A stretch of 28,292 bases of DNA. Origin: a virus (taxonomy: Duplodnaviria > Caudoviricetes). Below the pieces are notes generated by a model. It was not told the DNA's origin, ran no database searches, and saw only the letters and a program-made list of their open reading frames with translations. The position numbers were made by a program, and so were the translations under genes. Shown here in pieces: positions 14,478-27,903 of this stretch (within the stretch, counting starts at the first letter, position 1; each line of letters opens with the position of its first letter). The DNA lies in IMG/VR virus record IMGVR_UViG_3300042446_000347, positions 1 to 28,292 of that record; one strand, 5' to 3'.

Positions 14478-14503
14478 CCCAAAGTGGGGCGGGAAGCCAA
14501 GAG

Positions 14504-14686
14504 ATGACCTATACCTATGGATGGAAATGTATATGCAAATCAGAGATGGAGATGCATATATCTAAACTAACATATATTCCTGAATGTCTACAATGTGGAG
14601 AGCTAATGTTTATGATGTACTCCATAGATCCAGATGGAGCTGTATGGATGAACAAGGCATTACTTTTGGAGGGGGGAGAAGAATGA
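14504..14686 (+). CDS. Small zinc-ribbon protein
   Basis: WKCIC...CLQCG; start uncertain. Confidence 0.6.
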   Translation: MTYTYGWKCICKSEMEMHISKLTYIPECLQCGELMFMMYSIDPDGAVWMNKALLLEGGEE

Positions 14687-14853
14687 AATACCTATTCTTA
14701 CCTATATCAACCATACTCTCTCTATATGTAGCAAATACATTTTATAGACTAATAGCAAGAAATGCACTCAATAGATCCTTACCCAAGGAGCGAAAGATTC
14801 CTATTAGGAAGATATTCTTGCTGCTTCCAGCAAAGCAATCCAAGAGGAAATAA
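14683..14853 (+). CDS. Small membrane-anchored basic protein
   Basis: ATGA overlap; GGAG RBS. Confidence 0.5.
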   Translation: MKYLFLPISTILSLYVANTFYRLIARNALNRSLPKERKIPIRKIFLLLPAKQSKRK

Positions 14854-15365
14854 GCTCCATACTCCTATATCCCCCCGCCCATAAACATGTCTTAAAACCC
14901 CCTTAGAAGCCCATTTTGACTGCATAGATATAAGGATCTATGAAATAAATTACTATTAATTAGTGTCAGGTTACTATCTATTTGTCGACATAGAGATATA
15001 TGTGTAATTGGGCAGCCTTTCCACATATCCCCACTTAATCCCATTTTGCTCCACATGTCCCCACATGCCTACATATTTCAGGGATTTTGTCAATACCCTC
15101 GTAAATATGCATATGTGCCCCCAATCTGTCAATATAAATGTCGACAATTTGTGACAAAATTTGGGCAGATTCTGCATACATTCTATCTAATTTAGTATAC
15201 ATTCTATATGTATTTAAATAGATTTGTCGACAATTTGCTACAACTTTCAGGGATTTTTTTACATATGTCGTAAAAGGGAAAACCTGCCCTCATACCCACA
15301 CATTTTGGACATGCAAAAAATCCACAAGATATAATTATCCTGTGGATCATTTGGGCAGTATGTGA

Positions 15366-15653
15366 TTATTTAGGCAAAGATAGGTTGTTGAATTGATACT
15401 TCTTTGTTATGCTTTGTATGGATTGATTGATTTCATTAGCAAGGAATAGTCCTTCTGATGTCCGCCCGTTTTCCCAATCGTTGCTATGTCGCTGGGCTTG
15501 GTATCTAATTGTTTTAACCATTAACTCAACAATGCGGTCAATGGTGTGGTATGGCTGGTCTGCTAGATAATGTGCAATGATTGATGAATTAAAGTAATGG
15601 TCGTCTGTTGCATTTGCTATCTGTTCTGCTAATTTGATTTCTGGAGTTTTCAT
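15366..15653 (-). CDS. Hypothetical protein
   Basis: ACGAAAGG leader; extended -10 TGaTAGAAT at 15683-15675. Confidence 0.8.
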   Translation of the reverse strand: MKTPEIKLAEQIANATDDHYFNSSIIAHYLADQPYHTIDRIVELMVKTIRYQAQRHSNDWENGRTSEGLFLANEINQSIQSITKKYQFNNLSLPK

Positions 15654-15690
15654 AGTTCCGCCTTTCGTCTGTAGATTCTATCACAATAGG

Positions 15691-15725
15691 GAAGGGCTGG
15701 CAACCTTGGAGTCGACCAGCCCTTC
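15691..15725 (-). terminator. Hairpin downstream of the Lsr2-like gene
   Basis: GAAGGGCTGG...CCAGCCCTTC 10-bp stem; weak U tract. Confidence 0.5.
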
Positions 15726-15737
15726 GATCTATGGTTG

Positions 15738-15887
15738 TTACTTAGCCTTTGTGACCTTTGGTTCTGCTGTGAAGGTTACGCCCTTTGAGAGAGCCTCCTG
15801 AAGAGCTACCTTAGCTGCGCCTGAGAAACGGCCACGAGCTCCTACTGTAATTCCTTGCTGCTTTAGATATTCACGCTTTGTTGTCAT
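15738..15887 (-). CDS. Stand-alone Lsr2-like DNA-binding domain, 49 aa (not in ORF track)
   Basis: MTTKREYLKQQGITVGARGRFSGAAKVAL resembles the Lsr2 C-terminal RxWAxxxGxxVxxRGR AT-hook-like core; GAAAGGGG RBS. Confidence 0.7.
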   Translation of the reverse strand: MTTKREYLKQQGITVGARGRFSGAAKVALQEALSKGVTFTAEPKVTKAK

Positions 15888-15921
15888 TTGTTATCCCCTT
15901 TCAAGAGATTGATTTGTATTT

Positions 15922-15950
15922 ATTATATCAACTATTTACGAATTTGTAAA
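15922..15950 (-). promoter_or_regulatory. SigA-type promoter TTTACA-N17-TATAAT
   Basis: Upstream of the Lsr2-like ORF. Confidence 0.65.
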
Positions 15951-15999
15951 TAGGTTCCAGCCGATATTTAATTGTGTTCGTAAGATGATTTTTCCGCCC

Positions 16000-16134
16000 C
16001 TACGAAATTTGTTCTACCCTATCTCTAATTAGTTTACTAATGATATTATGGGCTTCAATGTTCTCAGTCTCGCTGCCACCCCACAATAGCTTTTGGGCCT
16101 TGTTTAATTGATCATTGATGTACTCGTCACTCAT
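16000..16134 (-). CDS. Hypothetical protein, 44 aa (not in ORF track)
   Basis: MSDEYINDQLNKAQKLLWGGSE...; overlaps the upstream stop. Confidence 0.65.
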   Translation of the reverse strand: MSDEYINDQLNKAQKLLWGGSETENIEAHNIISKLIRDRVEQIS

Positions 16135-16438
16135 CCTCATCTTCGTCCTCCTCTTCCATATCAGGGTCTACGATGTAGTCCCGATTAATCATCCATTCAA
16201 GAACTTCTTCCTGATGTTGTTCCGCCCCATACTCTAGAGAGAATCCCTGGCCAGCCTCTACAGCCTCACACAGGTGCCCCCACATGTCGTCCATGGTTAC
16301 CTTTGCCTTGTAGTTGTCATCCTTTAAGATGTTGTCGATTGTAGACCAGGTCCACAGCCACACCATGGAGAGCCCAAGGTCGGTGGAATCCAAGATCTCT
16401 AGGCAAGCATTTAACTTATCTTTATCTTCAGGTTTCAT
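16127..16438 (-). CDS. Acidic hypothetical protein
   Basis: AGGAGG RBS; coupled. Confidence 0.8.
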   Translation of the reverse strand: MKPEDKDKLNACLEILDSTDLGLSMVWLWTWSTIDNILKDDNYKAKVTMDDMWGHLCEAVEAGQGFSLEYGAEQHQEEVLEWMINRDYIVDPDMEEEDEDEDE

Positions 16439-16680
16439 TACTCTCCTCCTACTACATTGATTGGGTCAAATTCAAACACTTCTTCTTCCTTCATATATAG
16501 TTCTTGCTCTTCATCATTTAGATATACATCTACTGGTTCAATTACATTGTCTTGCTCTATTAGATTCCATTTATCTGTAGTTAGTTTGTCAGCAAGGTCA
16601 TATGCCTCATATGAATCCTTTGCTTCTAATTCCACCCAATACATCATCATCTTTTCACCTAGCACTCTAAATGTTGGCAT
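16438..16680 (-). CDS. Acidic hypothetical protein
   Basis: TAATG overlaps at both ends. Confidence 0.8.
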   Translation of the reverse strand: MPTFRVLGEKMMMYWVELEAKDSYEAYDLADKLTTDKWNLIEQDNVIEPVDVYLNDEEQELYMKEEEVFEFDPINVVGGE

Positions 16681-16970
16681 TACAGGTGACCGTCCTTTCT
16701 ATTCTCTGTGCGAATTCCAATCGCAAATGATAGGTCGTATGTTAGTTTATATAGAGCAGTCAAGGAGTCAAGGAAGCCTTCACAGTATTTGCGTTCCATT
16801 GAGTCCATTGCCGAGCCTGACTCTTCTTCAATTTCTTGGGCCTTTTCTAGTTCTTTCTCCCAAATAAGCATAAGGTTTTTAAGTTCCCCGTGCATTATAT
16901 CTAATCCATTAATATCGTAATTAACCATACGTTGCAAATGGGGCGGGAGCCCAATGTCTTCATTATTCAT
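16680..16970 (-). CDS. Hypothetical protein
   Basis: AACGAAAGG leader and boxed promoter. Confidence 0.8.
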   Translation of the reverse strand: MNNEDIGLPPHLQRMVNYDINGLDIMHGELKNLMLIWEKELEKAQEIEEESGSAMDSMERKYCEGFLDSLTALYKLTYDLSFAIGIRTENRKDGHL

Positions 16971-17157
16971 TATTATACCTTTCGTTAGTAGAGTTCATTA
17001 TATCAGTTGCCACTGACAATAAATGCTTGGTTGCCTCAATTTGTCCTGCTACAACACATCTAGAATGCTCATCATTTATAGAAAGCTTTTCCTTGTCTTG
17101 TTCAAGACTAATTAGATGAAGCTTCATATATTCTAGGAAATGAGATGACTTAGTCAA
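16963..17157 (-). CDS. Hypothetical protein (TTG start; 3' end runs through the next promoter)
   Basis: GGAGG upstream of TTG 17157. Confidence 0.6.
   Translation of the reverse strand: MTKSSHFLEYMKLHLISLEQDKEKLSINDEHSRCVVAGQIEATKHLLSVATDIMNSTNERYNNE
16997..17018 (-). promoter_or_regulatory. TGTCAG-N10-TATAAT promoter
   Basis: Copy 1 of 13. Confidence 0.8.
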
Positions 17158-17314
17158 AATAGCCCTCCGCCCATAGTCCTTGCATGAAAGCAATTGCTTG
17201 ATGCAACTTCTCTCCCATATCTTTATCAGGTCCACCATTTTTAAGATAGAATAACTTAGCATCGTGGACGGCATTGATCATGCTATCTAGTTCATCTACT
17301 GTATAACCTAGCAT
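17150..17314 (-). CDS. Hypothetical protein, 54 aa (not in ORF track)
   Basis: MLGYTVDELDSM...QGLWAEGYFD; GGAGG RBS. Confidence 0.72.
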   Translation of the reverse strand: MLGYTVDELDSMINAVHDAKLFYLKNGGPDKDMGEKLHQAIAFMQGLWAEGYFD

Positions 17315-17454
17315 TCTATTGCCTCCATATATTTAATCATAGTATTAAGTGTTATGTGAATGTGACAATCACAATCATCTGATGTATCTCTGTCGTCAAA
17401 ATGGATTAAGTTGTCATCATAGATATAATCAATTAGTTCTTGACTGGTAATCAT
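17308..17454 (-). CDS. Hypothetical protein, 48 aa (not in ORF track)
   Basis: ATGA overlap; DDCDCHIH motif. Confidence 0.65.
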   Translation of the reverse strand: MITSQELIDYIYDDNLIHFDDRDTSDDCDCHIHITLNTMIKYMEAIEC

Positions 17455-17663
17455 AGTAAGAATTCATCTCCTTCAATATAACCATAGTATTCGTTGTATG
17501 ATTGTTTTAAGTTATCAGGAGCAAATTGCATGAATTTATATTCAGCAAATGCTGAGCCTTCATCTAAGTTAGCATTGTTCCATTGCTCAAATAGATGTTG
17601 CTCAATATCTACCTGGATTGCTCCAAGAATATGCTCTCCAACTGTATCTGTAAATGCTTCCAT
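17451..17663 (-). CDS. Hypothetical protein
   Basis: True start is ATG 17663, after AACGAAAGGG. Confidence 0.78.
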   Translation of the reverse strand: MEAFTDTVGEHILGAIQVDIEQHLFEQWNNANLDEGSAFAEYKFMQFAPDNLKQSYNEYYGYIEGDEFLL

Positions 17664-17687
17664 TTTTATCCCTTTCGTTATGTGATT

Positions 17688-17709
17688 ATTATATATTAAG
17701 GCACTGACA
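17688..17709 (-). promoter_or_regulatory. TGTCAG-N10-TATAAT promoter
   Basis: Copy 2 of 13. Confidence 0.8.
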
Positions 17710-17827
17710 AATGGAATAGATTTCCTATGTGATCCCGCCCACATTGCAGCAAAGCTGCTAAATTTTCAGGGGTTTTTATATTGATCTCGTAAGAAGATTA
17801 TGGTACCCTCCTTCTTTGAGGGCATAT

Positions 17828-17859
17828 AAAAAATCCCCCAGATCTTACCTGGAGGATTT
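17828..17859 (-). terminator. Intrinsic terminator
   Basis: AAAUCCUCCAG-loop-CUGGGGGAUUUUUU on the minus strand. Confidence 0.75.
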
Positions 17860-17945
17860 AATATAAGGCTGCTAGGTACCAACGAAAGTAAAAACCTGCT
17901 TTATTTAACCCCTGGCCGAATGACTATAGAGGCACCTTTACTTAT

Positions 17946-18347
17946 TTAAACTAATGCTGGTGAATGCTTCTTAACAAAACTATCAAGAGACATATCAAAC
18001 ATTGGTGTGTCTAACATTCCACGGACCTTGTACTCTGTCGACTCTGACCATGGCGCCTCCTCATGAAGGCTAAACGTTTGCGTGCTCCAATCAATTAATG
18101 GAATTTTATGTTCGTTATCAGAAATTGAATTGACTGAAAGGCCCCAGCCTGTTTCTGATTTCCAATCATCCCCAACCAATTGTGAAATACAAATTCGTGT
18201 TGCATATGATTCATCTGCCCAGCGTGCTCGTGCTTTGTCTACAGCATCCGCTAGTTTTGCTAGCATGTTATGTCCTGCCCAGTGCCCGTACAGTACAATT
18301 GTTTCACCGTTTGACTGTCTGAATGCAAAGTTTGCTCTGTCTCCCAT
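17946..18347 (-). CDS. Conserved phage hypothetical protein (MGDRAN...LYGHWAG)
   Basis: 133-aa coupled ORF with AAGG RBS. Confidence 0.8.
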   Translation of the reverse strand: MGDRANFAFRQSNGETIVLYGHWAGHNMLAKLADAVDKARARWADESYATRICISQLVGDDWKSETGWGLSVNSISDNEHKIPLIDWSTQTFSLHEEAPWSESTEYKVRGMLDTPMFDMSLDSFVKKHSPALV

Positions 18348-18556
18348 TATAGTTCCGCCTCTTCTAATGTAGGTACTTCTTCGGTCTTATTTAATTCTAT
18401 CATTTCATATGCGACTTTGTCTAGCGCCGCCTCGAACTTATTCTTATGGTGCCCACAGAAATATAGTTCACCTTCAACTAGTTTAATTAACCACATAGCT
18501 TGTGCAGAATCTCCGCATTTATCGCAAGCAATCCATCTAGTTAAATCTTCAGTCAT
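18347..18556 (-). CDS. Zinc-binding hypothetical protein
   Basis: CDKC...FCGHH. Confidence 0.78.
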   Translation of the reverse strand: MTEDLTRWIACDKCGDSAQAMWLIKLVEGELYFCGHHKNKFEAALDKVAYEMIELNKTEEVPTLEEAEL

Positions 18557-18702
18557 AGGTTTCCGCCTTCAATCATGTCTGCTAGTTTATCTAATAACCA
18601 TGAATCGATATCCATGATGTCAATCTCACGCAACTTCTCTGTGATTTCCTCACGAGCCCAGCGTGCCCCATCATTGAATCCATCTTGGTATGTGTCGCCC
18701 AT
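18553..18702 (-). CDS. Hypothetical protein
   Basis: AGGAGA RBS before ATG 18702. Confidence 0.7.
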   Translation of the reverse strand: MGDTYQDGFNDGARWAREEITEKLREIDIMDIDSWLLDKLADMIEGGNL

Positions 18703-18703
18703 T

Positions 18704-18916
18704 TTAATCTCTCCTATATCCCGTTGGTTCTGAATCGCTTTCATGAATTAGTTTTAAGTTATGCTTCTCACGAAGGCGTGTTACTTTCTCAATACTACCA
18801 GTTCCAATGTTGAATGTCAACGACTCCATTGCCTCTGGATCTAAACCAATTAACTCTGCATCCCAGATGGCCCTCGCAAAGGCCACCTGGTTTGGAGCGG
18901 TAAGTTCAAAGTACAT
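18704..18916 (-). CDS. Hypothetical protein
   Basis: GAGG RBS; TAATG overlap. Confidence 0.75.
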   Translation of the reverse strand: MYFELTAPNQVAFARAIWDAELIGLDPEAMESLTFNIGTGSIEKVTRLREKHNLKLIHESDSEPTGYRRD

Positions 18917-19533
18917 TAGTCCACCTCTACTGAATCGATAGATGATGACATATATGTAATTGGTTCATCATATGATACTGTGTCAAAGTCTGTCTCATGA
19001 ATTGCATTGATAGCAGACTCCTCGTCACGAGCATTAACTGTAACTGAATACTGAACTGTTACGGTCAACTCAAATTCATTTGTTAGTTCAAAGCCACAGA
19101 TGCTTGCAATCTCTTCTGCTTGATATTCTGTAATAGAATCATCATCAAGGCCCTCTAAGGTAAAGATCTTCATATCATCACGCAACTTATTTAATGTTCC
19201 TGCAGTTGCATAGTCACGTTGTGTGACACGTTGAATCTGCTCTTCAAGTTGCTGAATGCGTGCCTTGTTTTCTACTAACTGAGTTTCCAGGAACTCCCGT
19301 GTCATATAGTAGTTGTCTGTTGTTGTTTCCATTTTTTCCTCTTTCGTTTGGTTAGTTGTTGGTAGTGTAGCATGCTCCACTGACAATAATGTGGTCTTAC
19401 GGCCACAAGGACATGTTAGCTCTGTCACACCAGATGGGAACCCAAATCCATCTGATGATGTTAGTTCGATTAAAGAATCACATTCATTTGGGTCACAGAC
19501 AAATGTATATTTAGATGAGACTAGGTCTGTCAT
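18916..19533 (-). CDS. Hypothetical protein with an internal in-frame start at 19332
   Basis: N-terminal Cys-rich module followed by a coiled-coil/acidic module that has its own promoter and RBS. Confidence 0.75.
   Translation of the reverse strand: MTDLVSSKYTFVCDPNECDSLIELTSSDGFGFPSGVTELTCPCGRKTTLLSVEHATLPTTNQTKEEKMETTTDNYYMTREFLETQLVENKARIQQLEEQIQRVTQRDYATAGTLNKLRDDMKIFTLEGLDDDSITEYQAEEIASICGFELTNEFELTVTVQYSVTVNARDEESAINAIHETDFDTVSYDEPITYMSSSIDSVEVD
19364..19385 (-). promoter_or_regulatory. TGTCAG-N10-TACACT promoter (intragenic)
   Basis: Copy 3 of 13. Confidence 0.75.
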
Positions 19534-20183
19534 GATTCATACCCACACTTCTGACATGTCTCTACACCCTTTTCATCATCATAGATTAAACAATCAGTCT
19601 CATCACATTCACGACAAATGTTATCGTATTCTGATTCTGAGATAACTACACCACGAAGGATTTCTAGTTCACCGCCCCAGCCAGTCTCTTCCTCATATGA
19701 TAAAGTAAATAGCAAGTCAGGGTATTGTGCAGATAGTTTAGTTAATGCACCCATTGGGCGAGACCAAGCGGTATTAAAGTTGTAGTGAACGACATGGTTA
19801 TCACCATTGGCGGTGTCCTCCATATTAGTATCAGGATACTTGTCACCTACGGATACGGCAACATCCCATTTAGTTCCCCACTCACGGATATTAAAGTTAT
19901 ACCAATCATTGGTAAGACACTTCATTGCTTCTTGAATTGGGAGGGAATGGTCAGGCTGACCAAGATATACTTCTTCAGTAATACCAGCATCCATATAGTT
20001 ATAGATATTATGAAATGCAAAGACAGGCTCTGCATATATAGTATTCTTCTTCATGAATGTATTAGCGCTTACATCCCATGAATCATGTAGTTGAGTAAAT
20101 GGCTTATTTAATTGAGCCATCATTTTCTTTACAGAATCAGGATTACCTTCTACAGTTAATCCGTTATATACCCAGTTTGGCAT
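19530..20183 (-). CDS. YubB/DUF1281-like ferredoxin-fold protein
   Basis: MPNWVYNGL...DWYNFNIREWGTKWD...FNTAWSRP...YPDL; true start 20183. Confidence 0.8.
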   Translation of the reverse strand: MPNWVYNGLTVEGNPDSVKKMMAQLNKPFTQLHDSWDVSANTFMKKNTIYAEPVFAFHNIYNYMDAGITEEVYLGQPDHSLPIQEAMKCLTNDWYNFNIREWGTKWDVAVSVGDKYPDTNMEDTANGDNHVVHYNFNTAWSRPMGALTKLSAQYPDLLFTLSYEEETGWGGELEILRGVVISESEYDNICRECDETDCLIYDDEKGVETCQKCGYES

Positions 20184-20214
20184 ATTTATATCCTTTCGTT
20201 GGTGATATGTCAGA

Positions 20215-20244
20215 ATTATAGCGGATGCCACTGACAAATGTCAA
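20215..20244 (-). promoter_or_regulatory. TGTCAG-N10-TATAAT promoter, also with TTGACA at N18
   Basis: Copy 4 of 13; a reversed CTGACA lies just downstream of the -10. Confidence 0.85.
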
Positions 20245-20337
20245 TGCGGTTTCAGGGGTTTTTTAAAATCTTTCGTAACAAGATTTCCCCGCCTTCCATA
20301 TTGGGGGCATAGCAGCAGCTTTGTCAAATTAAAAAGA

Positions 20338-20366
20338 TGAGCAGTTTTAAATCATGCTCAGGATCT
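20338..20366 (-). ncRNA. Putative H-type pseudoknot, copy 1
   Basis: AGAUC-CUGAGCAU-GAUUU-AAAAC-UGCUCA. Confidence 0.6.
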
Positions 20367-20374
20367 TTTGCTAT

Positions 20375-21379
20375 TTAGAAAGCAGAAACCAATTTCTTGA
20401 TTTTGTTTTTCTCAGCAGTTAGAACAGGGTCAAATCCTGATGCACCTGCAATAAGTGATTCAGAGTTGCCTCGTGATGTGCGATAGTAATCTAGGCGTTC
20501 AGTAAGCGCATTAAATGCACCCCACTTTGTTCCCTTGATTGTCGCATTGGTTGGTGAGTTATGATACAAATCATCAAGCAAGACAACTTTGTTTTCCCAC
20601 TTCTTTAGCGCACCCTTAGAATCCTTTTCAGGCTTTGGGTAGATTGTGTGAATCAACTTTGAGAATTCTGCATCTGTAATTGATTGATTGAACATTGCTT
20701 GTGCTTCCTTCTCAAATTCATCAAAGTAGCCGAGAGCAAGACCAAGAGTCTCACGGGCAACTTGAATTCGTCCTTCAACTGATTGTGTGTGACGAATCTT
20801 GAAAGATTGCTTTGCATTACGCATTGCAAGGTTAAGAGTGTTTTGGCATACAACACGAACAGGAGTAACAGCAGCCTGAACAGCAACTGACCCGTCATGA
20901 GATGTCCAAACAATTAAATAAAGTTTTGTCTCGTCATTTGCACCTTGTGGGTCAAGCACCATTGTGCGGGGAATGTCCACAGTACCAAAAACAACTTTAC
21001 CGCTACGCAATGAGCCAGCAGATTCCCAAAAGCAATTTGGGTCTGCATCATGAATTGCATCAGCAAATGCAAATAATTCTTCATTCTGCACTGGCTTGTA
21101 ACGCTTACCAACAGTAGCAAGAACATCAGTTCCGCCGTTGAATGGATTGTCACGCAATACAAGAGATGCGGTAGAAACATCATTCCATGATTCTGGAATG
21201 TGCTCAGTGATTGGAGATAGACGAACATTCCAATTAGACAACTTTGCTTCATCAAGCATTGTTTGTGTTGTAACTTCTTCATCTTGATTAAAGATGCGAT
21301 TTGCTAATCCATGCCATGCTGGTTTTCCACGCAAAGCAAAAGCAACTTCGCCGTTTTCAGTTTCTAGATTATGAGCCAT
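20375..21379 (-). CDS. DUF932/DUF945 (TIGR03299-like) phage/plasmid protein
   Basis: PAWHGL, YKPVQN, ESAGSL, SHDGS, RVVCQNTL, RHT and GTKWGAFNALTE motifs. Confidence 0.92.
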   Translation of the reverse strand: MAHNLETENGEVAFALRGKPAWHGLANRIFNQDEEVTTQTMLDEAKLSNWNVRLSPITEHIPESWNDVSTASLVLRDNPFNGGTDVLATVGKRYKPVQNEELFAFADAIHDADPNCFWESAGSLRSGKVVFGTVDIPRTMVLDPQGANDETKLYLIVWTSHDGSVAVQAAVTPVRVVCQNTLNLAMRNAKQSFKIRHTQSVEGRIQVARETLGLALGYFDEFEKEAQAMFNQSITDAEFSKLIHTIYPKPEKDSKGALKKWENKVVLLDDLYHNSPTNATIKGTKWGAFNALTERLDYYRTSRGNSESLIAGASGFDPVLTAEKNKIKKLVSAF

Positions 21380-21411
21380 AATTTATTTCCTTTCGATTGG
21401 TTAATAAACTG

Positions 21412-21433
21412 AGTATAACATAGGGGTCTGACA
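21412..21433 (-). promoter_or_regulatory. TGTCAG-N10-TATACT promoter
   Basis: Copy 5 of 13. Confidence 0.8.
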
Positions 21434-21470
21434 TTAACAAGATTAGACAGTCATTTGTCGACAATTATTG

Positions 21471-21486
21471 TGTGATCAATCTCACA
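21471..21486. promoter_or_regulatory. CRP/GlxR consensus site
   Basis: TGTGA-TCAATC-TCACA. Confidence 0.7.
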
Positions 21487-21500
21487 TTTTTTCAGGGGAT

Positions 21501-21530
21501 TGTGGATAACCTTCTTAAACCTGTGGATAA
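21501..21530. promoter_or_regulatory. Two perfect DnaA boxes
   Basis: TGTGGATAA at 21501 and 21522. Confidence 0.7.
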
Positions 21531-21560
21531 CCCCGCAGTATTGGGGGCAGCTTAGGAAGA

Positions 21561-21585
21561 TGGGGCGGGATCTTGTCCCGCCCCA
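21561..21585 (-). terminator. GC-rich hairpin after gene 21590
   Basis: TGGGGCGGGA-tcttg-TCCCGCCCCA. Confidence 0.65.
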
Positions 21586-21589
21586 AGCC

Positions 21590-21853
21590 TTATGCTATGT
21601 GCAACTCTTTAGAAGTCAGTTGCTTTGTTTTGCTATTTACTTTATTAACTATGTCCTCGTTAATAAACATTGCAGTTGTTTTCTTTTTCTTTAGTGTATC
21701 AACAACGTATGCATTTACTTTACCACTAAAGCGGCGGAGATTAGAAAATACTAATTCAGTTAGATAATCTTTATCTACACCCTGTTCAGAATAGATTGTT
21801 AAATCATTTGCTTTGTTTGCGTCATAGATTTCTATTCTAAAACGATTACGCAT
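21590..21853 (-). CDS. Basic hypothetical protein
   Basis: AAAGGA RBS. Confidence 0.78.
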   Translation of the reverse strand: MRNRFRIEIYDANKANDLTIYSEQGVDKDYLTELVFSNLRRFSGKVNAYVVDTLKKKKTTAMFINEDIVNKVNSKTKQLTSKELHIA

Positions 21854-21888
21854 TTTATTTCCTTTGTTAGTAGGGACACCCGAAGGTG

Positions 21889-21918
21889 TGAGCAGTTTTA
21901 GTTGTCATGCTCAGGACA
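21889..21918 (-). ncRNA. Putative H-type pseudoknot, copy 2
   Basis: UGUC-CUGAGCAU-GACA-ACUAAAAC-UGCUCA, followed by an ACACC-UUCG-GGUGU hairpin. Confidence 0.6.
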
Positions 21919-21934
21919 TTTTCCTTATTAGGAA

Positions 21935-22360
21935 TTATAGATAACGAGCAATCGCATTGTAAGTTGAGGTATTAACTGTTTCCTCATCTGTCATTTTAAG
22001 AATACGAATAGCGTTTTCGATTTCTTGCTTCTGCTCTAAGTAGTTGTGACGACCCATCTGCTCAAACTCACGCTCAGGCTCTGTTGGTAGTTCTGCCTGT
22101 GTAACTGTTAAGTCAAAGTCAATGTTGAGTGTGTTGTTCCAAGAACGATAGTTTGTGCGAAAGTTCTCTGCTTTCTTGATGTTAGCAGTTGCATAGGCAA
22201 TAAGTTCCTTCTTATACTTCTCAAAAGCCTTTGTGTATTTTGCTTCGTTTGCTTCTTGATTAGCATAGTTAGTTTCTAGTTCTGCTAGGCGAGTTTCTAG
22301 TGCCTTGATTACCTTTGGTGTTGCGATTTTTACTGAGATTGATTTTCCGTTTCTAGCCAT
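21935..22360 (-). CDS. Helical hypothetical protein
   Basis: AACGAAAGAGGA leader. Confidence 0.82.
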   Translation of the reverse strand: MARNGKSISVKIATPKVIKALETRLAELETNYANQEANEAKYTKAFEKYKKELIAYATANIKKAENFRTNYRSWNNTLNIDFDLTVTQAELPTEPEREFEQMGRHNYLEQKQEIENAIRILKMTDEETVNTSTYNAIARYL

Positions 22361-22396
22361 TTGTTTCCTCTTTCGTTGGTTGGTTGGTTTAGTTGT

Positions 22397-22418
22397 ATTA
22401 TAGCGGAGGGGTCTGACA
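22397..22418 (-). promoter_or_regulatory. TGTCAG-N10-TATAAT promoter
   Basis: Copy 6 of 13; overlapped by a GGAGGGGTCT/AGACCCCTCC hairpin. Confidence 0.8.
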
Positions 22419-22441
22419 AGTCGTGAGACCCCTCCACTTCC

Positions 22442-22618
22442 TTATACTAGGGCTTCGTTGCTAACTGTTGTCCAACGAGTTTCCTTTGTTGGCATTTCCA
22501 GTAGCACACGCACCGAGCCAGATGCGTTAGGAATAATCTCCTTGATTACTCCAGTTTTCTTTGACTTTAGGGTGGTGAATAAATCGCCAACCTTGTAAGT
22601 GTATCCATTTACTGTCAT
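22442..22618 (-). CDS. 58-aa SH3/KOW-like small beta protein (not in ORF track)
   Basis: YKVGDLF...KTGVIKEI...VRVLL; own promoter and GAAAGGA RBS. Confidence 0.75.
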   Translation of the reverse strand: MTVNGYTYKVGDLFTTLKSKKTGVIKEIIPNASGSVRVLLEMPTKETRWTTVSNEALV

Positions 22619-22644
22619 TTTGCTTCCTTTCTGTTTAGGGTGTT

Positions 22645-22666
22645 ATTGTATCATTAGGGTCTGACA
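22645..22666 (-). promoter_or_regulatory. TGTCAG-N10-TACAAT promoter
   Basis: Copy 7 of 13. Confidence 0.8.
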
Positions 22667-22684
22667 TTTATCAAGACCCTGCGG

Positions 22685-22700
22685 TGTGATAAGCATCACA
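22685..22700. promoter_or_regulatory. CRP/GlxR consensus site
   Basis: TGTGA-TAAGCA-TCACA. Confidence 0.65.
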
Positions 22701-22836
22701 AGTATTCTGTTAGGTCTCCGTCCATAATTTCGTTCAGCTCCAAGCCTTCTGAGTCTGCGATAGCCTCCCATAGATCCATTTCATTAAAGTCTCCGTCTGG
22801 GTGTCTTTCGGATAAGATAGAATAAAGATTGTCCAT
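22696..22836 (-). CDS. Very acidic 46-aa protein (not in ORF track)
   Basis: GAGGAGGA RBS; TAATG overlap. Confidence 0.72.
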   Translation of the reverse strand: MDNLYSILSERHPDGDFNEMDLWEAIADSEGLELNEIMDGDLTEYL

Positions 22837-23105
22837 TAGTAATCCTCCTCTGGTAGCCAAGCCTCTAAGTGGTGTTGCTCAATAATTGCAGATGCGGGTG
22901 CAGTTACCTGCCCACGCCATGATATGCCTTCAGGTAAGGCGATTTCACGATTGTAGTCCTCATCATAGAAAGCATCAATTGCTTCTATGCAAGGATCCAC
23001 CATAGAAAGCGGGACGGGTGGATAGTGATTACCTTGCAAGTGATAACCAATAGCAACCTCTATGTCTAATTCATTAGATAAATCTAGCGCTGTATTGTAT
23101 CCCAT
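22836..23105 (-). CDS. Conserved phage hypothetical protein (HLQGNHYPPVP)
   Basis: Coupled ORF. Confidence 0.8.
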   Translation of the reverse strand: MGYNTALDLSNELDIEVAIGYHLQGNHYPPVPLSMVDPCIEAIDAFYDEDYNREIALPEGISWRGQVTAPASAIIEQHHLEAWLPEEDY

Positions 23106-23308
23106 TATTCTGCCACCTTAAGAATTGCATAGGACCCGTTAGCATTTATTTCATCAAGGATTGGTTTTAGTCGGCTACCGACTAAATCTTTTAGCATTGA
23201 CTCTAGCATAAAGATACGAGTATTTTCATCAAGTGCCATGACCTGTTGAGTTACTGGATGATTGTCTGCAAACTCTGTTACAAACTTTAGATTGTGTTCT
23301 ACTAGCAT
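23105..23308 (-). CDS. Hypothetical protein
   Basis: AACGAAAGG leader. Confidence 0.8.
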   Translation of the reverse strand: MLVEHNLKFVTEFADNHPVTQQVMALDENTRIFMLESMLKDLVGSRLKPILDEINANGSYAILKVAE

Positions 23309-23337
23309 TGTTTACCTTTCGTTGTTGGAATAAGAGT

Positions 23338-23359
23338 ATTTTAGCATGGGCCACTGACA
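23338..23359 (-). promoter_or_regulatory. TGTCAG-N10-TAAAAT promoter
   Basis: Copy 8 of 13. Confidence 0.8.
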
Positions 23360-23396
23360 AATAGATAAACACGCCCTATGTTTATCTAATTTATTT

Positions 23397-23412
23397 TGTG
23401 ATAAACCTCACA
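23397..23412. promoter_or_regulatory. CRP/GlxR consensus site
   Basis: TGTGA-TAAACC-TCACA. Confidence 0.7.
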
Positions 23413-23489
23413 ATTTCAGGGGTATTTTGGTGCTTGACTTAAACTATGTTTTGCCCCCACGAACTTAGGGGCAGCTGCATACTTATGCA

Positions 23490-23621
23490 TTATTCTGCAT
23501 TTTTATTTTTGTGTTTGATCTTGCGTGTGTATTTTTTTTTATTGCGTACAGGTTGCGCCGCATTACTGCGACGCAATTCCTGTATGCGTTTTACTTTATC
23601 TCGAAGTGAAGTTTGGAACAT
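23490..23621 (-). CDS. 43-aa highly basic protein with KKKYTRKIKHK tail (not in ORF track)
   Basis: Open frame MFQTSLRDKVKRIQELRRSNAAQPVRNKKKYTRKIKHKNKNAE. Confidence 0.6.
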   Translation of the reverse strand: MFQTSLRDKVKRIQELRRSNAAQPVRNKKKYTRKIKHKNKNAE

Positions 23622-23787
23622 TGTACCCACACGCTTCATGAAATCGCTTTACATCAAATCGGTCATTATCTTTCGCAAACATTTCAGCAAAATCATTTAC
23701 AATTTTAGAAAATAAAGCGGGGTGCGATTTATCGCTTGCATACTTTAGAATTTCTGCGGTTGCTACATAGTCTTTACGAGTCATCAT
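23596..23787 (-). CDS. Conserved small phage protein (MTRKDY...DNDRFDVKRF)
   Basis: GAAAGG RBS; coupled. Confidence 0.8.
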   Translation of the reverse strand: MMTRKDYVATAEILKYASDKSHPALFSKIVNDFAEMFAKDNDRFDVKRFHEACGYNVPNFTSR

Positions 23788-23987
23788 TTAATTGTTACCT
23801 TTCCCATTCGGTCAATTACTTTTGTGTACATCTTGCCTGTCGGCATTGATAGGTTAATCGTTGAGTATTCGTTAGCAAATCCAACATCAGTAAATTTAGC
23901 AAATGCGGTAAATGCTTCCAATGCATCATCATAGTCGCCACTCCAGCGAACAGAATTTCCGTCATAGGATAAAGTAATCTTATACAT
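23784..23987 (-). CDS. Hypothetical protein
   Basis: GGAG RBS before ATG 23987. Confidence 0.75.
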   Translation of the reverse strand: MYKITLSYDGNSVRWSGDYDDALEAFTAFAKFTDVGFANEYSTINLSMPTGKMYTKVIDRMGKVTIK

Positions 23988-23988
23988 C

Positions 23989-24141
23989 TTAGTAATCTCC
24001 AATTTCGTTAGTTACGCAATCGCATGGCTCGACATCATAGGAGTTTTCATCTCCCCAAAAAATTGCACCAAAACCTAAGCAATCATCACACACAATGACG
24101 GAGATAGTTCCCTCATCTAATACATCTAAAAAATTTCCCAT
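23989..24141 (-). CDS. 50-aa acidic Cys-containing protein (not in ORF track)
   Basis: CDDC...PCDC; AACGAAAGGA leader. Confidence 0.75.
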   Translation of the reverse strand: MGNFLDVLDEGTISVIVCDDCLGFGAIFWGDENSYDVEPCDCVTNEIGDY

Positions 24142-24174
24142 TTATAGTTTTCCTTTCGTTGTTGTTATAGTGGA

Positions 24175-24196
24175 ATTATAGCGGAAGGGTCTGACA
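24175..24196 (-). promoter_or_regulatory. TGTCAG-N10-TATAAT promoter
   Basis: Copy 9 of 13. Confidence 0.8.
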
Positions 24197-24198
24197 AA

Positions 24199-24408
24199 TT
24201 AGTCAGACACCTTCACGGCAACAGTAGCCCAAAAATTAGCAATGTTGCGAGTGGAAGAAACCTGAATTGCATACGCTTCAAGGTCGTCTCCGTAGTAAAT
24301 ACCCTCACGCTTTTCTGCGTGTAGTATAGTGCCCTCATCATGGCGAGAGCGTGAGCGGTAGTGCTTGCCTACAAGTAGGGCGGGGACGGATAGAATTAGT
24401 GCTGACAT
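24199..24408 (-). CDS. Hypothetical protein
   Basis: AACGAAAGG leader. Confidence 0.8.
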   Translation of the reverse strand: MSALILSVPALLVGKHYRSRSRHDEGTILHAEKREGIYYGDDLEAYAIQVSSTRNIANFWATVAVKVSD

Positions 24409-24438
24409 GGTGTCACCTTTCGTTTGTTGAATAAGAGT

Positions 24439-24460
24439 ATTGTACCAAAAGCCACTGACA
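24439..24460 (-). promoter_or_regulatory. TGTCAG-N10-TACAAT promoter
   Basis: Copy 10 of 13. Confidence 0.8.
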
Positions 24461-24508
24461 TAAACTAATTACTAGTCAGTAATTCCAAGATGTGAGACGC
24501 TCAAGTCA

Positions 24509-24524
24509 TGTGATAAATCTCACA
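24509..24524. promoter_or_regulatory. CRP/GlxR consensus site
   Basis: TGTGA-TAAATC-TCACA. Confidence 0.7.
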
Positions 24525-24549
24525 AGATCTCGGGCGTGTCGTACATAGG

Positions 24550-24600
24550 TTATCCACATTTTTTCAGGGGTTTTCCACATTTATACGTAAGTTATCCACA
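24550..24600. promoter_or_regulatory. DnaA box cluster (2 perfect, 1 with one mismatch)
   Basis: TTATCCACA 24550, TTTTCCACA 24571, TTATCCACA 24592, at 21-bp period. Confidence 0.72.
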
Positions 24601-24658
24601 GCCCCCACATATTTGGGGGCGGCATGCCGATTTGTCAAGTCGACACGCCACCTTTTAT

Positions 24659-24847
24659 TTATTCGTTATGAGACAAACTATCTTGGTAGTCATAGAAACC
24701 TTGTTCCCACATAACAGGATCGCAAGAAAAAAGAATTTCAGATGCGGTAAAAGTTGCATAACCGATTTTAACTTCTGGATAGCATTCGTCAAGCATTTGA
24801 TTATATGCTTCTTTCATTTCTAGTTCAATTTCAAAATCTGTTTTCAT
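24659..24847 (-). CDS. Acidic hypothetical protein
   Basis: AAGGGGGG RBS; ATGA overlap. Confidence 0.78.
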   Translation of the reverse strand: MKTDFEIELEMKEAYNQMLDECYPEVKIGYATFTASEILFSCDPVMWEQGFYDYQDSLSHNE

Positions 24848-25008
24848 TTGCCCCCCTTATAAAGAAAATCCCAAGCCTTGCGGCATAACACAATAGATTG
24901 GCAGTTATCGCAACAAATAACGCCATCACGATTTAATTCTAAATCGTACATATCGATTGTGGTAGTTACTGCACCACATACAGAGTTTACAGATACAAAA
25001 GTGCTCAT
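24844..25008 (-). CDS. Small Cys-rich protein
   Basis: AAGGA RBS before ATG 25008; ATGA overlap. Confidence 0.7.
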   Translation of the reverse strand: MSTFVSVNSVCGAVTTTIDMYDLELNRDGVICCDNCQSIVLCRKAWDFLYKGGK

Positions 25009-25151
25009 ATATAAAGTCCTTCCGTTGAGCGGTCTAATTCCCAATACATCTTTTCTTCTTGCCACTCAAAGTAATGAGTATCGCAAAGGTCAGATGGCTT
25101 AATAGAATAACAAGTTATTCCGTTTTCAATAGCGTAACATGAAGCGCACAT
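25005..25151 (-). CDS. Small zinc-finger-like protein
   Basis: MCASC...LCDTH; AACGAAAGGA leader. Confidence 0.72.
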   Translation of the reverse strand: MCASCYAIENGITCYSIKPSDLCDTHYFEWQEEKMYWELDRSTEGLYI

Positions 25152-25179
25152 GAAGTTTTCCTTTCGTTTGATTATTGAA

Positions 25180-25201
25180 AGACTATCACAATGTACCGAC
25201 A
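25180..25201 (-). promoter_or_regulatory. TGTCGG-N10-TAGTCT promoter
   Basis: Copy 11 of 13 (variant box). Confidence 0.7.
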
Positions 25202-25218
25202 AATCCTAATCCATTCCG

Positions 25219-25234
25219 TGTGAGGTTCGTCACA
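25219..25234. promoter_or_regulatory. CRP/GlxR consensus site
   Basis: TGTGA-GGTTCG-TCACA. Confidence 0.65.
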
Positions 25235-25248
25235 AATTTCTAGGGTGT

Positions 25249-25281
25249 TTATCCACAGCTCCTTAATGCCCCTGTGGATAA
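25249..25281. promoter_or_regulatory. Two perfect DnaA boxes, inverted
   Basis: TTATCCACA 25249 and TGTGGATAA 25273. Confidence 0.7.
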
Positions 25282-25386
25282 CCGCCCCCAAAAGATAGGG
25301 GCGGGTCTCCCTGAAAGTCAAGGAGACACGCTGTTAGTTAGCTAACAGATACGCTAACCCAAAACCTACCATGGCACATAGTATGA

Positions 25387-25542
25387 CTACCATTTATCTA
25401 ACCTCATTCTATAGATCTTGTATGCAACAGTAATAAAAACGGCGGTGGCAATAGTATGCCAAGGTAGATAGATAGCCCCTAAGAAACTATCTAACTCCAT
25501 GCCATAGTCATTAATACGAAACACTAATCCACTAATACTCAT
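25387..25542 (-). CDS. 51-aa membrane protein (not in ORF track)
   Basis: GGAG RBS; C-terminal TM followed by basic residues. Confidence 0.65.
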   Translation of the reverse strand: MSISGLVFRINDYGMELDSFLGAIYLPWHTIATAVFITVAYKIYRMRLDKW

Positions 25543-25728
25543 TTACTTATCTCCAAACATGTTAAAGACCTCATCTAGTTGTTCATCTGTTAAGTGGTCT
25601 ATCTGTATAGCCTTAACAAATCCGAACACATCTTCTTCTTCTGCCATAAGTTGTTCGTACATCTCCTCTTCTGCTAGGTGTGCGTATGCATCGCTTACAT
25701 CTGCCTGAATTGTATCCCATTTAGTCAT
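25543..25728 (-). CDS. Acidic hypothetical protein
   Basis: AGGAG RBS. Confidence 0.8.
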   Translation of the reverse strand: MTKWDTIQADVSDAYAHLAEEEMYEQLMAEEEDVFGFVKAIQIDHLTDEQLDEVFNMFGDK

Positions 25729-25731
25729 TTA

Positions 25732-25899
25732 TTATTCTCCTACCTTGATAGACATTACATTAGCGGTAAACTTTTTAATCTTTCCTAATTCGCTAGCATT
25801 AAGAGAGTTGATTAGGTGGTCAATAGCCTTGACCTCATGTGCTACATTGTCAATAGAGATTAGTTTAGAGCCTTGCCAAATTGAGTAAGTGATAGTCAT
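25732..25899 (-). CDS. 55-aa hypothetical protein (not in ORF track)
   Basis: MTITYSIWQGSKLISIDN...; AACGAAAG leader. Confidence 0.72.
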   Translation of the reverse strand: MTITYSIWQGSKLISIDNVAHEVKAIDHLINSLNASELGKIKKFTANVMSIKVGE

Positions 25900-25934
25900 T
25901 GTCTGTTCTTCTTTCGTTAGTAGGTTATAGTGGA

Positions 25935-25956
25935 ATTGTAGAGGATAGGGCTGACA
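25935..25956 (-). promoter_or_regulatory. TGTCAG-N10-TACAAT promoter
   Basis: Copy 12 of 13. Confidence 0.8.
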
Positions 25957-25974
25957 AATGGTAGCGACACGCTA

Positions 25975-26112
25975 TTAGTTAGAGTGTGATTTAGAACACC
26001 ATGTCTGGTGTATTGCTAGGTATCTGCACTCTGAGCAGATAGCGTCTCCTAGTCGTGCTAGTAGTTGCTCTCTACTTTCTAGAGAGTTTCTGTTTTCATG
26101 TATTGAGTTCAT
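25975..26112 (-). CDS. Small zinc-binding protein; first gene of the minus-strand array
   Basis: CSEC...HQTWC; AAAGGAG RBS before ATG 26112. Confidence 0.72.
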   Translation of the reverse strand: MNSIHENRNSLESREQLLARLGDAICSECRYLAIHQTWCSKSHSN

Positions 26113-26141
26113 CTGAACTCCTTTCTTTATCTTATGTCTTA

Positions 26142-26163
26142 AGACTAACATGGGGCACTGACA
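26142..26163 (-). promoter_or_regulatory. TGTCAG-N10-TAGTCT promoter
   Basis: Copy 13 of 13. Confidence 0.75.
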
Positions 26164-26329
26164 AAAATCTAATCGAAATTCGGACATTAAGGACATTTAT
26201 AAAAATAATTGCAAAAAAGCATGTGATAAGGGTCACTTATGGGGGCACTAACTAGACAATTCGGACATTTTTATAGTGTGTATCATACATAATAAAATCC
26301 TATTAACATTTTCTAAAATGTGAAAGCTA

Positions 26330-26359
26330 TTGACCTGCAAAAATATCTCATGTTACAAT
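26330..26359 (+). promoter_or_regulatory. Promoter TTGACC-N18-TACAAT with extended -10 TG
   Basis: Diverges from the minus-strand array; about 210 nt to the next ATG. Confidence 0.7.
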
Positions 26360-26575
26360 TGGAAAGGTTTCGGGGGTTACACTAAGAACTCAATATGCCA
26401 GATGTAATGCATAGCGATATTGGTAAACTTTCTTCTACTTTCCTTTAAGTTAAAAAAAGGGGGGTAGGGGGGGTTTGCTAAAAATCTAATTTCCAGATGA
26501 AGTATTAAAAAAAATATTATATTAACATTTTATAAAATCTAATATCCTAGTTGACTAGAATATATAGGGGGAATT

Positions 26576-26815
26576 ATGAGAAAGCTTTATATAGATCAAA
26601 TAGCCAGACGGATCACAGATAGAAAATATTCTACGAAAACGTATTATAGTTCAGATATTGATCAAGCAACGGCGGCAATGCAATGGTTCATAGATTACCT
26701 TGATGTAGAATTACAAAGATGTGACAATGTAGAAGATGGCAAATGTGACATTGAATGGAAGCATGAAGATTGTGAAAGAATTTCAAGAATACTTAAAGAC
26801 TTGAAAACTAGTTGA
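26576..26815 (+). CDS. Hypothetical protein
   Basis: AGGGGG RBS. Confidence 0.75.
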   Translation: MRKLYIDQIARRITDRKYSTKTYYSSDIDQATAAMQWFIDYLDVELQRCDNVEDGKCDIEWKHEDCERISRILKDLKTS

Positions 26816-26831
26816 CTAGGATATAAATACA

Positions 26832-27026
26832 ATGGCTACAAAAAAAGCGGGAACAGAAGTAGAAAACACCACTTGCTACACATATAAAGTAGAGATGTTA
26901 ATTCAAGTCCTTGCTAAGGATGAACCAACAGCTTTGGATCAATTAGAAAAATCAGGTGGCTATGTTACAGATAGACAAGTTACTCTAATGGATAGTGTTT
27001 CTTTATATAATGGCGAAAAGGGATAA
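26832..27026 (+). CDS. Hypothetical protein
   Basis: AGGA RBS; 64 aa. Confidence 0.75.
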   Translation: MATKKAGTEVENTTCYTYKVEMLIQVLAKDEPTALDQLEKSGGYVTDRQVTLMDSVSLYNGEKG

Positions 27027-27232
27027 CTTTTTATCTCCCGCCCTTTTAAGGGTGGATGTATACCGAAGGTAACAAATAACCCTGTTAGGGCCTTAAAACC
27101 CTCTCAGGGTATTTTTATGGCCTATTCCAGCAAATAGCTAAGATGTTGAAATGGGGTCTCTTCTCGCCGAAGCACTTTTTTCGCACTAATTGCACTATAT
27201 GACCGATATGTCCTATATTATATGCATATATA

Positions 27233-27323
27233 ACAAGAAACCCAATCAGAGGCGGATCCGATTGGGTTCTCATATCTTGCGATATATGTACGTAGGAACA
27301 TGTGGGATGCTACAACTACGCAC
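27233..27323 (-). ncRNA. Putative ~90-nt three-hairpin small RNA
   Basis: Starts 6 nt after a consensus -10; three stems, one with a GCAA tetraloop; ends in a terminator-like hairpin. Confidence 0.62.
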
Positions 27324-27329
27324 AATTCA

Positions 27330-27358
27330 ATTGTAAAATAGCTTTTATTCTAAGTCAA
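27330..27358 (-). promoter_or_regulatory. Promoter TTGACT-N17-TACAAT
   Basis: Near-consensus hexamers at optimal spacing. Confidence 0.75.
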
Positions 27359-27364
27359 CTGTTT

Positions 27365-27589
27365 TTAGAATAAAGTTTGCTGCCCGTCTTCTTCTGTTGG
27401 AGCAGAGTATGATGGGGCGGGTCCAAGAAGGTACCCTTCCTCATGATATGAAACCATCTTAGATACATCCTCTGGCCCAACTAGTTTATTTGCAATAATT
27501 GTCAATAGGTCATATATACGGTGAAGCATAATATAGTTAACCATTGGTAGGTTATCTTCTAATGCTGATGATTTTTCTTCATTTTTCAT
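27365..27589 (-). CDS. Hypothetical protein
   Basis: 74-aa ORF, last of its operon. Confidence 0.75.
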   Translation of the reverse strand: MKNEEKSSALEDNLPMVNYIMLHRIYDLLTIIANKLVGPEDVSKMVSYHEEGYLLGPAPSYSAPTEEDGQQTLF

Positions 27590-27686
27590 CTGGTCTACCT
27601 AAGTCTTCCCAAAATTTTTCCCGCCCCATATTATCAATAGGAATAATTGGGGTGCTGTTGCATTGGCAGTCTTTATCACATGTCAT
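27579..27686 (-). CDS. 35-aa hypothetical protein (not in ORF track)
   Basis: MTCDKDCQC...MGREKFWEDLGRP; overlaps both neighbours. Confidence 0.55.
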   Translation of the reverse strand: MTCDKDCQCNSTPIIPIDNMGREKFWEDLGRPDEK

Positions 27687-27897
27687 CTTGGACCTTCTTC
27701 ATAGTCTTTATAATCTCATCATAAAAACCAAATCCTATAAACTTTTTATATTCACAAGATAGGCAATACAAGTATACCTCGTCTTCATTTGTCTGATTAG
27801 GAAGAAGAAGACCTTGATCTAGTGGGCAAACCAGTCTAGGAACAAGGCCTTCTTCAGAAAGTGCTATGTATTGAGATACTTGCTGTATCCTACGCAT
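27676..27897 (-). CDS. Zinc-ribbon-like hypothetical protein
   Basis: CPLD...CLSC; AGGAG RBS. Confidence 0.78.
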   Translation of the reverse strand: MRRIQQVSQYIALSEEGLVPRLVCPLDQGLLLPNQTNEDEVYLYCLSCEYKKFIGFGFYDEIIKTMKKVQDDM

Positions 27898-27903
27898 TTT
27901 CTC

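Follow-up and report, generated by a model that had tools for sequence, protein, structure and literature searches.

In the cluster K phages the SAS, in the part of the report available, is a non-palindromic repeat at ribosome-binding sites that is conserved beyond its pairing with 16S rRNA, occurs in one orientation and is confined to non-structural genes (PMC3203893). A single reversed SAS lying away from a gene start was noted in four K1 phages, with the authors, in the same part of the report, leaving open whether its partner is RNA or protein (PMC3203893). The post-transcriptional end of the early programme in phages is known mainly from proteins of T4, with the locus described here pointing instead to an RNA.

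The window (the whole stretch of DNA analysed, 28,292 nucleotides) is a 28-kb virus record in which WhiB, DUF932 and lysozyme-like genes are present, with near-complete relatives reaching 110-120 kb. Its minus-strand arm from 15.4 to 26.2 kb is a series of small genes that, judged by layout, may constitute the early class. The host would be an actinobacterium, and the low GC content together with two 151-nt contigs from a lake metatranscriptome, at least 99% alike to the window, suggests a freshwater one. Comparison of the window locus with cultured phages by blastn gave no match, and homologues of the gene at 18347-17946 occur in Streptomyces (including BE), Gordonia and Nocardia phages (39 records). 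Searching for relatives by this protein yielded 76 loci (L001-L076) out of 80 candidates, L001 being the window sequence itself and many of the 76 being near-duplicates.

The 8-mer AACGAAAG occurs 12 times in the window against an expectation of 0.60 +/- 0.71, with 0 of 100 shuffles reaching 12. Ten copies lie in minus-strand leaders, one is reversed at 17881-17888 and one is in sense orientation within a plus-strand gene (3669-3676), such that the reversed copy is the single one in the early arm; the uniqueness claimed for it in the preliminary description holds for that arm, the whole window having the further sense copy. Sites resembling a TGTCAG-N10-TANNNT promoter number 13 on the minus strand (17709-26163) and 0 on the plus strand, and all ten leader boxes are found 8-19 nt past such a promoter and 7-11 nt before an ATG, so that the box marks the first gene of each unit. 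The GAAAG of the likely Shine-Dalgarno sequence is part of the box. Across L001-L076 a TGTCAG-type promoter stands upstream of 466 of the 512 boxes, while in five genomes that are 92-100% complete the 58 AACGAAAG matches comprise 49 in sense orientation in the small-gene arm, five in the RNA loop and four elsewhere. The boxed leaders of the window are as follows.

25911..25918, minus strand: leader box AACGAAAG; gene start 25899, promoter 25956
25161..25168, minus strand: leader box; ATG 25151, promoter 25201
24417..24424, minus strand: leader box; gene start 24408, promoter 24460
24153..24160, minus strand: leader box; gene start 24141, promoter 24196
23316..23323, minus strand: leader box; gene start 23308, promoter 23359
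22370..22380, minus strand: leader box ACCAACGAAAG, 11-nt match; gene start 22360, promoter 22418, predicted pairing -14.0 kcal/mol
20193..20203, minus strand: leader box ACCAACGAAAG, 11-nt match; gene start 20183, promoter 20236, predicted pairing -14.3 kcal/mol
19341..19348, minus strand: leader box; ATG 19332, promoter 19385, the closest TGTCAG-class promoter upstream of the RNA
17672..17679, minus strand: leader box; gene start 17663, promoter 17709
16979..16986, minus strand: leader box; gene start 16970, promoter 17018

Other repeats and start types were also seen in the window. Two near-identical hairpin-like repeats (about 21918-21888 and 20365-20335, minus strand) directly follow the stops of a 141-aa gene and the DUF932 gene, with no Rfam match at E<=5. 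A second repeat, reading TTACG...CCCTGAAA on the minus strand, is present at 15076, 15245, 17764, 20250, 21490 and 24562, upstream of several promoters; it is also found 3' of the RNA in most relatives and may be a protein site. On the plus strand the genes starting at 6836, 7405 and 12541 begin 6 nt past a -10-like hexamer and are apparently leaderless, such that they would escape an RNA directed against ribosome-binding sites.

The reversed copy belongs to a longer complement. The 11-mer ACCAACGAAAG has exactly three copies, at 20203-20193 and 22380-22370 on the minus strand and reversed at 17878-17888; this exact-match count confirms the earlier claim that the minus-strand RNA carries at 17888-17878 an exact complement of two leaders, those of the genes that start at 20183 and 22360. 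That RNA lies between the gene at 18347-17946 and a terminator, both placed as previously described, and is made up of the following elements.

17946..18347, minus strand: upstream 133-aa gene, function unassigned (phrog_31860); stop at 17946, with the RNA beginning 8 nt past it
17865..17938, minus strand: structured RNA core, three-way junction, 74 nt; 78.4 bits with CM R1, the window copy being identical to one training sequence; covariation; minimum-energy fold equal to the covariation fold
17934..17938, minus strand: P1 5' strand AAGGU, pairing with 17869-17865; outer pairs covary
17908..17933, minus strand: P2 arm, a 6-bp stem, internal loop and 3-bp stem with a variable loop
17900..17908, minus strand: conserved junction YUAARUAA, the covarying Y and R flanking UAA as a predicted lone pair
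17871..17899, minus strand: P3 arm with a variable U-rich loop, containing the seed
17878..17888, minus strand: seed CUUUCGUUGGU, with the conserved core CUUUCGUU at 17888-17881, complementing the AACGAAAG box of ten leaders
17865..17869, minus strand: P1 3' strand GCCUU, pairing with 17938-17934; covariation
17826..17859, minus strand: intrinsic-terminator-like hairpin and U tract, with a 13-pair stem at 17859-17831

The seed is accessible rather than buried in structure, with a predicted opening cost of about 2.3 kcal/mol. Including opening costs, predicted pairing averaged -10.2 kcal/mol at the ten boxed starts, -4.6 at 21 other minus-strand starts and -3.1 at 24 plus-strand starts, in line with the proposal that the seed would favour boxed leaders, this contrast being partly circular as the seed match itself defines the boxed leaders. 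The starts were picked by hand from the list of open reading frames, two of them 2 nt off, and the unboxed DUF932 leader also reached a predicted -9.6 kcal/mol with a one-base bulge. That the RNA pairs with the leaders is highly probable.

Pairing could in principle help rather than hinder, with the scaffold recruiting a protein or the ribosome or shielding mRNA 5' ends from decay. The pairing site is about 2-20 nt from where the transcripts are inferred to start, which would suit such protection, and the invariant junction bases and predicted lone pair of the scaffold suggest a binding surface. Against this, the conserved core lies over the GAAAG that stands 7-11 nt ahead of the ATG, and in one clade over all of GAAAGGAA, and a helping role is considered unlikely. 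The Shine-Dalgarno region has to be free for 30S binding.

Energy minimisation of the window copy returned the covariation fold of the RNA as well. With RNAalifold on distinct relatives the result was a three-way junction of 19 pairs, 9 of them with changes on both sides; two P2 pairs had both sides changed in 20 and 21 of 41 sequences. In the helices 97.4% of cells were paired, compared with 23-50% in slid controls, with 116 two-sided changes against 41.8 in shuffles, while measures of covariation based on pair count and pair type showed no excess over shuffles (91 and 287 of 500). The 74-nt core of the window by itself was no more stable than shuffles (z -0.17). The strand of the RNA is fixed by G-U pairs. 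The bases flanking the junction UAA in 91 sequences were U..A in 43, C..G in 39 and other combinations in 9, suggesting that they may form a tertiary lone pair. The preliminary description had overlooked this conserved scaffold, which also exists without the seed; it had correctly placed the seed in a U-rich stretch, which is the P3 loop of the three-way junction, but the AGGUGCC/GGUACCU stem proposed to close that stretch is possible in this genome only, GGUACCU being present in 3 of 41 distinct relatives and the conserved P1 being AAGGU/GCCUU.

The origin of the RNA differs between seed types. Among the other two seed types (B and C), 59 of 62 distinct upstream regions contain a TGnTATAAT-like extended -10 promoter belonging to the RNA itself, often with an extra hairpin downstream of it, compared with 4 of 38 regions of the seed type of the window (A); the promoter is absent in the window and in one further upstream region of another type. 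Of eight sequencing runs compared as contigs, four were RNA runs in which no contig covered the seed, a lack that carries no weight as evidence, and the other four are probably DNA. The view that this is a 3'-UTR RNA is thus apt for the subclade of this genome, in which such an origin is likely since the RNA begins 8 nt past the stop, while in the other two types it is a stand-alone gene. The lack of a clear promoter of its own in this subclade and the position 8 nt past the stop would fit action in cis, in which the 3' end of the operon transcript pairs with its own 5' leader, the boxed leader at 19348 lying upstream with no notable terminator-like site listed between. Such an arrangement is very unlikely given the RNA's own promoters in the other two types and the distribution of ten boxes over separate promoter units facing a single complement.

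Exactly one CTTTCGTT is present on the gene strand in each of the 76 loci, in 75 of them inside one scaffold (41 distinct scaffolds). A loop-free pattern scan of half of IMG/VR, in which the seed was not used, returned 119 scaffold matches, some from the same contigs, and 113 of these (70 of 75 distinct cores) hold the 8-mer seed, with the loop positions other than UU-N-CUUUCGUU-GG being 28-76% conserved. The seed is therefore kept where the leader is kept, as the preliminary proposal implied. The same 8-mer recurs across relatives with a neighbouring protein 57-100% identical, predicting cross-inhibition, and by analogy with the c4 RNA of P1 and P7, which in the part of the source available acts in immunity (PMC12197685), the main job of the RNA could be superinfection exclusion or a carrier state, with accumulated RNA silencing the first mRNAs of a related phage entering the cell. 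Immunity RNAs would, however, be expected to diversify, as in c4 heteroimmunity, while this seed is nearly invariant, an invariance for which the ten targets of the phage itself already account; nor was a repressor or integrase identified among the 12 window proteins scanned. Exclusion as the main function is accordingly considered improbable.

In the remaining locus (L076) the seed lies in the 15-nt loop of a plain hairpin before a terminator, a fold unrelated to the scaffold, and no scaffold was detected in this 22%-complete record. A pattern for this plain-hairpin type gave two matches, L076 itself and one inside an unrelated coding region. Conversely, the fold recurs with different loops, under promoters of its own, in three distant uncultured clades (CM 38-55 bits). 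The genomes of these clades hold 1-6 AACGAAAG matches in total; one to three boxes, or none, lie close to the RNA, and no reversed copy does. A search for alternative seeds in five loci of these clades found no repeated complement upstream of starts. The scaffolds without a seed and the seed without a scaffold in L076 indicate that seed and fold are separable modules.

The fold also extends to cultured phages. In Streptomyces phage BoomerJR the CM found a match in each of the two terminal repeats (E 1.4e-4) with a TTGACA promoter upstream, and extension by blastn reached 92 Streptomyces phage records, unannotated under 58 of the 60 matches listed, and, for BK phages, 34 records. All 14 Streptomyces BE/BK loci tested scored 23-34 bits (E 2e-4 to 0.07, the model E-values being rough) and showed the same helices as judged by eye; in DSL-LC01 the neighbouring gene is present with no CM candidate. 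No 7-mer of the BE/BK RNA matches more than four of its own leaders, and the 6-mer CCUUUC in the BE 3' tail matches 3-7 of 18-23 leaders. These seedless RNAs (L228 791-851, L229-L232, L230 8993-9052) share a conserved GUCGG loop and carry extras in the form of a CCUUUCAA 3' tail (BE) and a UUCGUU-containing 5' extension (BK). A bacterial origin was rejected, the 12 GTDB pattern matches consisting of three CM-scoring short phage-like MAG contigs and nine chance matches. The scaffold predates the seed, and its persistence without a seed in clades lacking the box and in cultured BE/BK phages implies that the fold has another role, probably in supplying stability or a protein-binding surface.

This raises the question of whether the scaffold has its own function involving a host or phage protein, with the reversed box being a passenger or a double-stranded DNA site of a leader-binding protein. 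Scaffolds without the seed, present in several uncultured clades as well as 92 Streptomyces phage records, would allow this, and in L097 (6999-7073) and its kin the P3 loop includes TTGAC, the -35 box of the following gene, which looks leaderless, demonstrating that constraint on the loop at the DNA level occurs. Retention in 70 of 75 distinct cores would not be expected of a passenger, and the reversed copy is always single and always in the predicted loop of the transcribed strand; moreover, the seed outlives the loss of the scaffold (L076), with its flanks following complementarity to the leaders. An explanation of this type is rated as having little probability.

The flanks of the seed shift with those of the leaders between clades, in agreement with antisense pairing. 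Where loops read UUCCUUUCGUUUG the leaders continue with G in 71 of 71, followed by A (85%) and A (92%), and loops reading UUCCUUUCGUU accompany leaders that continue with GAA. A CC ahead of the box accompanies loops that end in GG (21 of 129 and 21 of 100 leaders, compared with 1 of 71), and these loops tolerate an A after the box. Pairing of each seed with its own leaders had an advantage of -0.72 kcal/mol (0 of 20,000 permutations; 28 groups, each with at least four leaders), while within seed types the permutation p was 0.13. One orthologous leader reads GAAAG-A in 35 of the 39 loci with a GG-type seed and GAAAG-G in all 23 remaining loci, the loci not being deduplicated. On a quick DUF932 tree of 93 rows the UUCC phages form a basal grade or lie nested, and the GG phages form a derived clade apart from a single basal one, suggesting that only some three or four independent contrasts may underlie the co-change. 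In the seed type of the window the A 5' of the core mismatches a target A and a target G alike, such that the change is a loss of pairing rather than compensation, and a point change in the seed of L192 had no matching leader change. The co-change is thus at the level of clades, with few events, and lends what appears to be moderate support to antisense pairing.

The reading that we favour builds on the observed complementarity, the position of the box downstream of a single class of promoter, the covariation of the fold, the conservation of the seed and the clade-level co-change of flanks. It is that the RNA probably acts in trans as an antisense RNA occluding early ribosome-binding sites and damping this class together. 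In most relatives the RNA would be made from an extended -10 promoter of its own, in the subclade of this genome by read-through or processing of the upstream operon, and it would accumulate as a stable species. One loop would present the complement of AACGAAAG and pair in trans with ten short leaders, covering the GAAAG of their ribosome-binding sites and repressing initiation at the first genes of TGTCAG-class units, the predicted early class. The outcome would be a delayed negative feedback by which ribosomes are passed to later genes, several of them leaderless-looking.

Several known RNAs were considered as identities. Rfam 15 gave no match at the gathering score in the window (14500-28292) or in 16 loci. 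NsiR1 (RF02399) was rejected at 24.4 and 23.1 bits against a gathering score of 39, mostly over the terminator, and Rfam C4 gave no match at E<=5 in 14500-28292 nor at E<=1 in 16 loci. A remnant of tmRNA was considered because in BoomerJR (L222 20416-20694) a tmRNA directly follows the homologue of the gene at 18347-17946; it was discarded as ARAGORN found none, the loop lengths modulo 3 were distributed 36/31/21 and the CM showed no similarity between the BoomerJR tmRNA and the scaffold RNA. Likenesses to self-cleaving ribozymes, SAM-I, xrRNA, Y RNA and tracrRNA came from comparison by eye only and had no Rfam support. A Cas9-guide mimic was dropped since, in the parts of the sources available, homology to crRNA and tracrRNA is what defines rAcrIIA1, and the Nanopelagicales are without CRISPR (PMC10202952). 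No description of the scaffold RNA or of the BE/BK RNA was found in the literature searched, which left out most subscription journals; the motif was not found in the part of the supplement of Fremin 2023 that was searched and may still be among its candidates (PMC10690425).

Among described systems, cluster K SAS is alike in the one-orientation repeat at ribosome-binding sites and the single reversed copy off gene starts. On the accessible part of that report it differs in that the leaders here read AACGAAAG rather than the 13-bp SAS consensus, in that the repeat families listed here include no 17-bp inverted repeats like those of SAS/ESAS and have a TGTCAG-N10-TANNNT promoter instead, and in that the reversed copy here sits in a covarying three-way junction (PMC3203893). 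In the cluster K mycobacteriophage Anaya, positions 30,000-60,835 hold 15 forward SAS-like matches and one reversed (L324 29871-29883, about 59,870 in the genome), which is intergenic and in this one genome predicted to lie in a 10-nt hairpin loop, making the hairpin a candidate anti-SAS RNA. Pairing of the kind proposed here would offer a reason for the conservation of phage leaders beyond the Shine-Dalgarno core, which for the SAS was, in the part of the 2011 report available, an open question.

The c4 RNA of P1 and P7 resembles the RNA described here as a structured phage RNA that displays in a loop the sequence by which it pairs in trans close to a ribosome-binding site of the phage; from the part of the source available, c4 controls one operon (ant) in immunity, whereas here one seed faces about ten targets on separate promoter units (PMC12197685). 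T4 RegB and RegA provide, in the portion of the account available, a class-wide post-transcriptional shut-down of early genes through a shared motif in the translation-initiation region, but these are proteins, with RegB cutting GGAG, while here an RNA is proposed and no cleavage is implied (PMC3014915). The RNA of the Stanwilliamsviridae (Streptomyces BE/BK) has the same P1-P2-YUAANUA-P3 fold, its own promoter and a position near a DUF932-sized gene of the small-gene arm, unlike the seed-bearing RNA in its GUCGG P3 loop and in having no clear pairing to its own leaders. As the seed-bearing phages are uncultured, the occurrence of the RNA family in 92 Streptomyces phage records makes the fold open to genetics. 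In function the RNA would be a variant of loop-displayed antisense control in trans, on a fold absent from Rfam. A wider extension, offered tentatively and with more doubt than conviction, is that an ancient fold of large actinophages serves as a modular platform on which one lineage placed a loop guide that acts against a leader tag to end the early class, as an RNA counterpart of T4 RegB, and that the same design explains cluster K SAS and would represent a general phage strategy.
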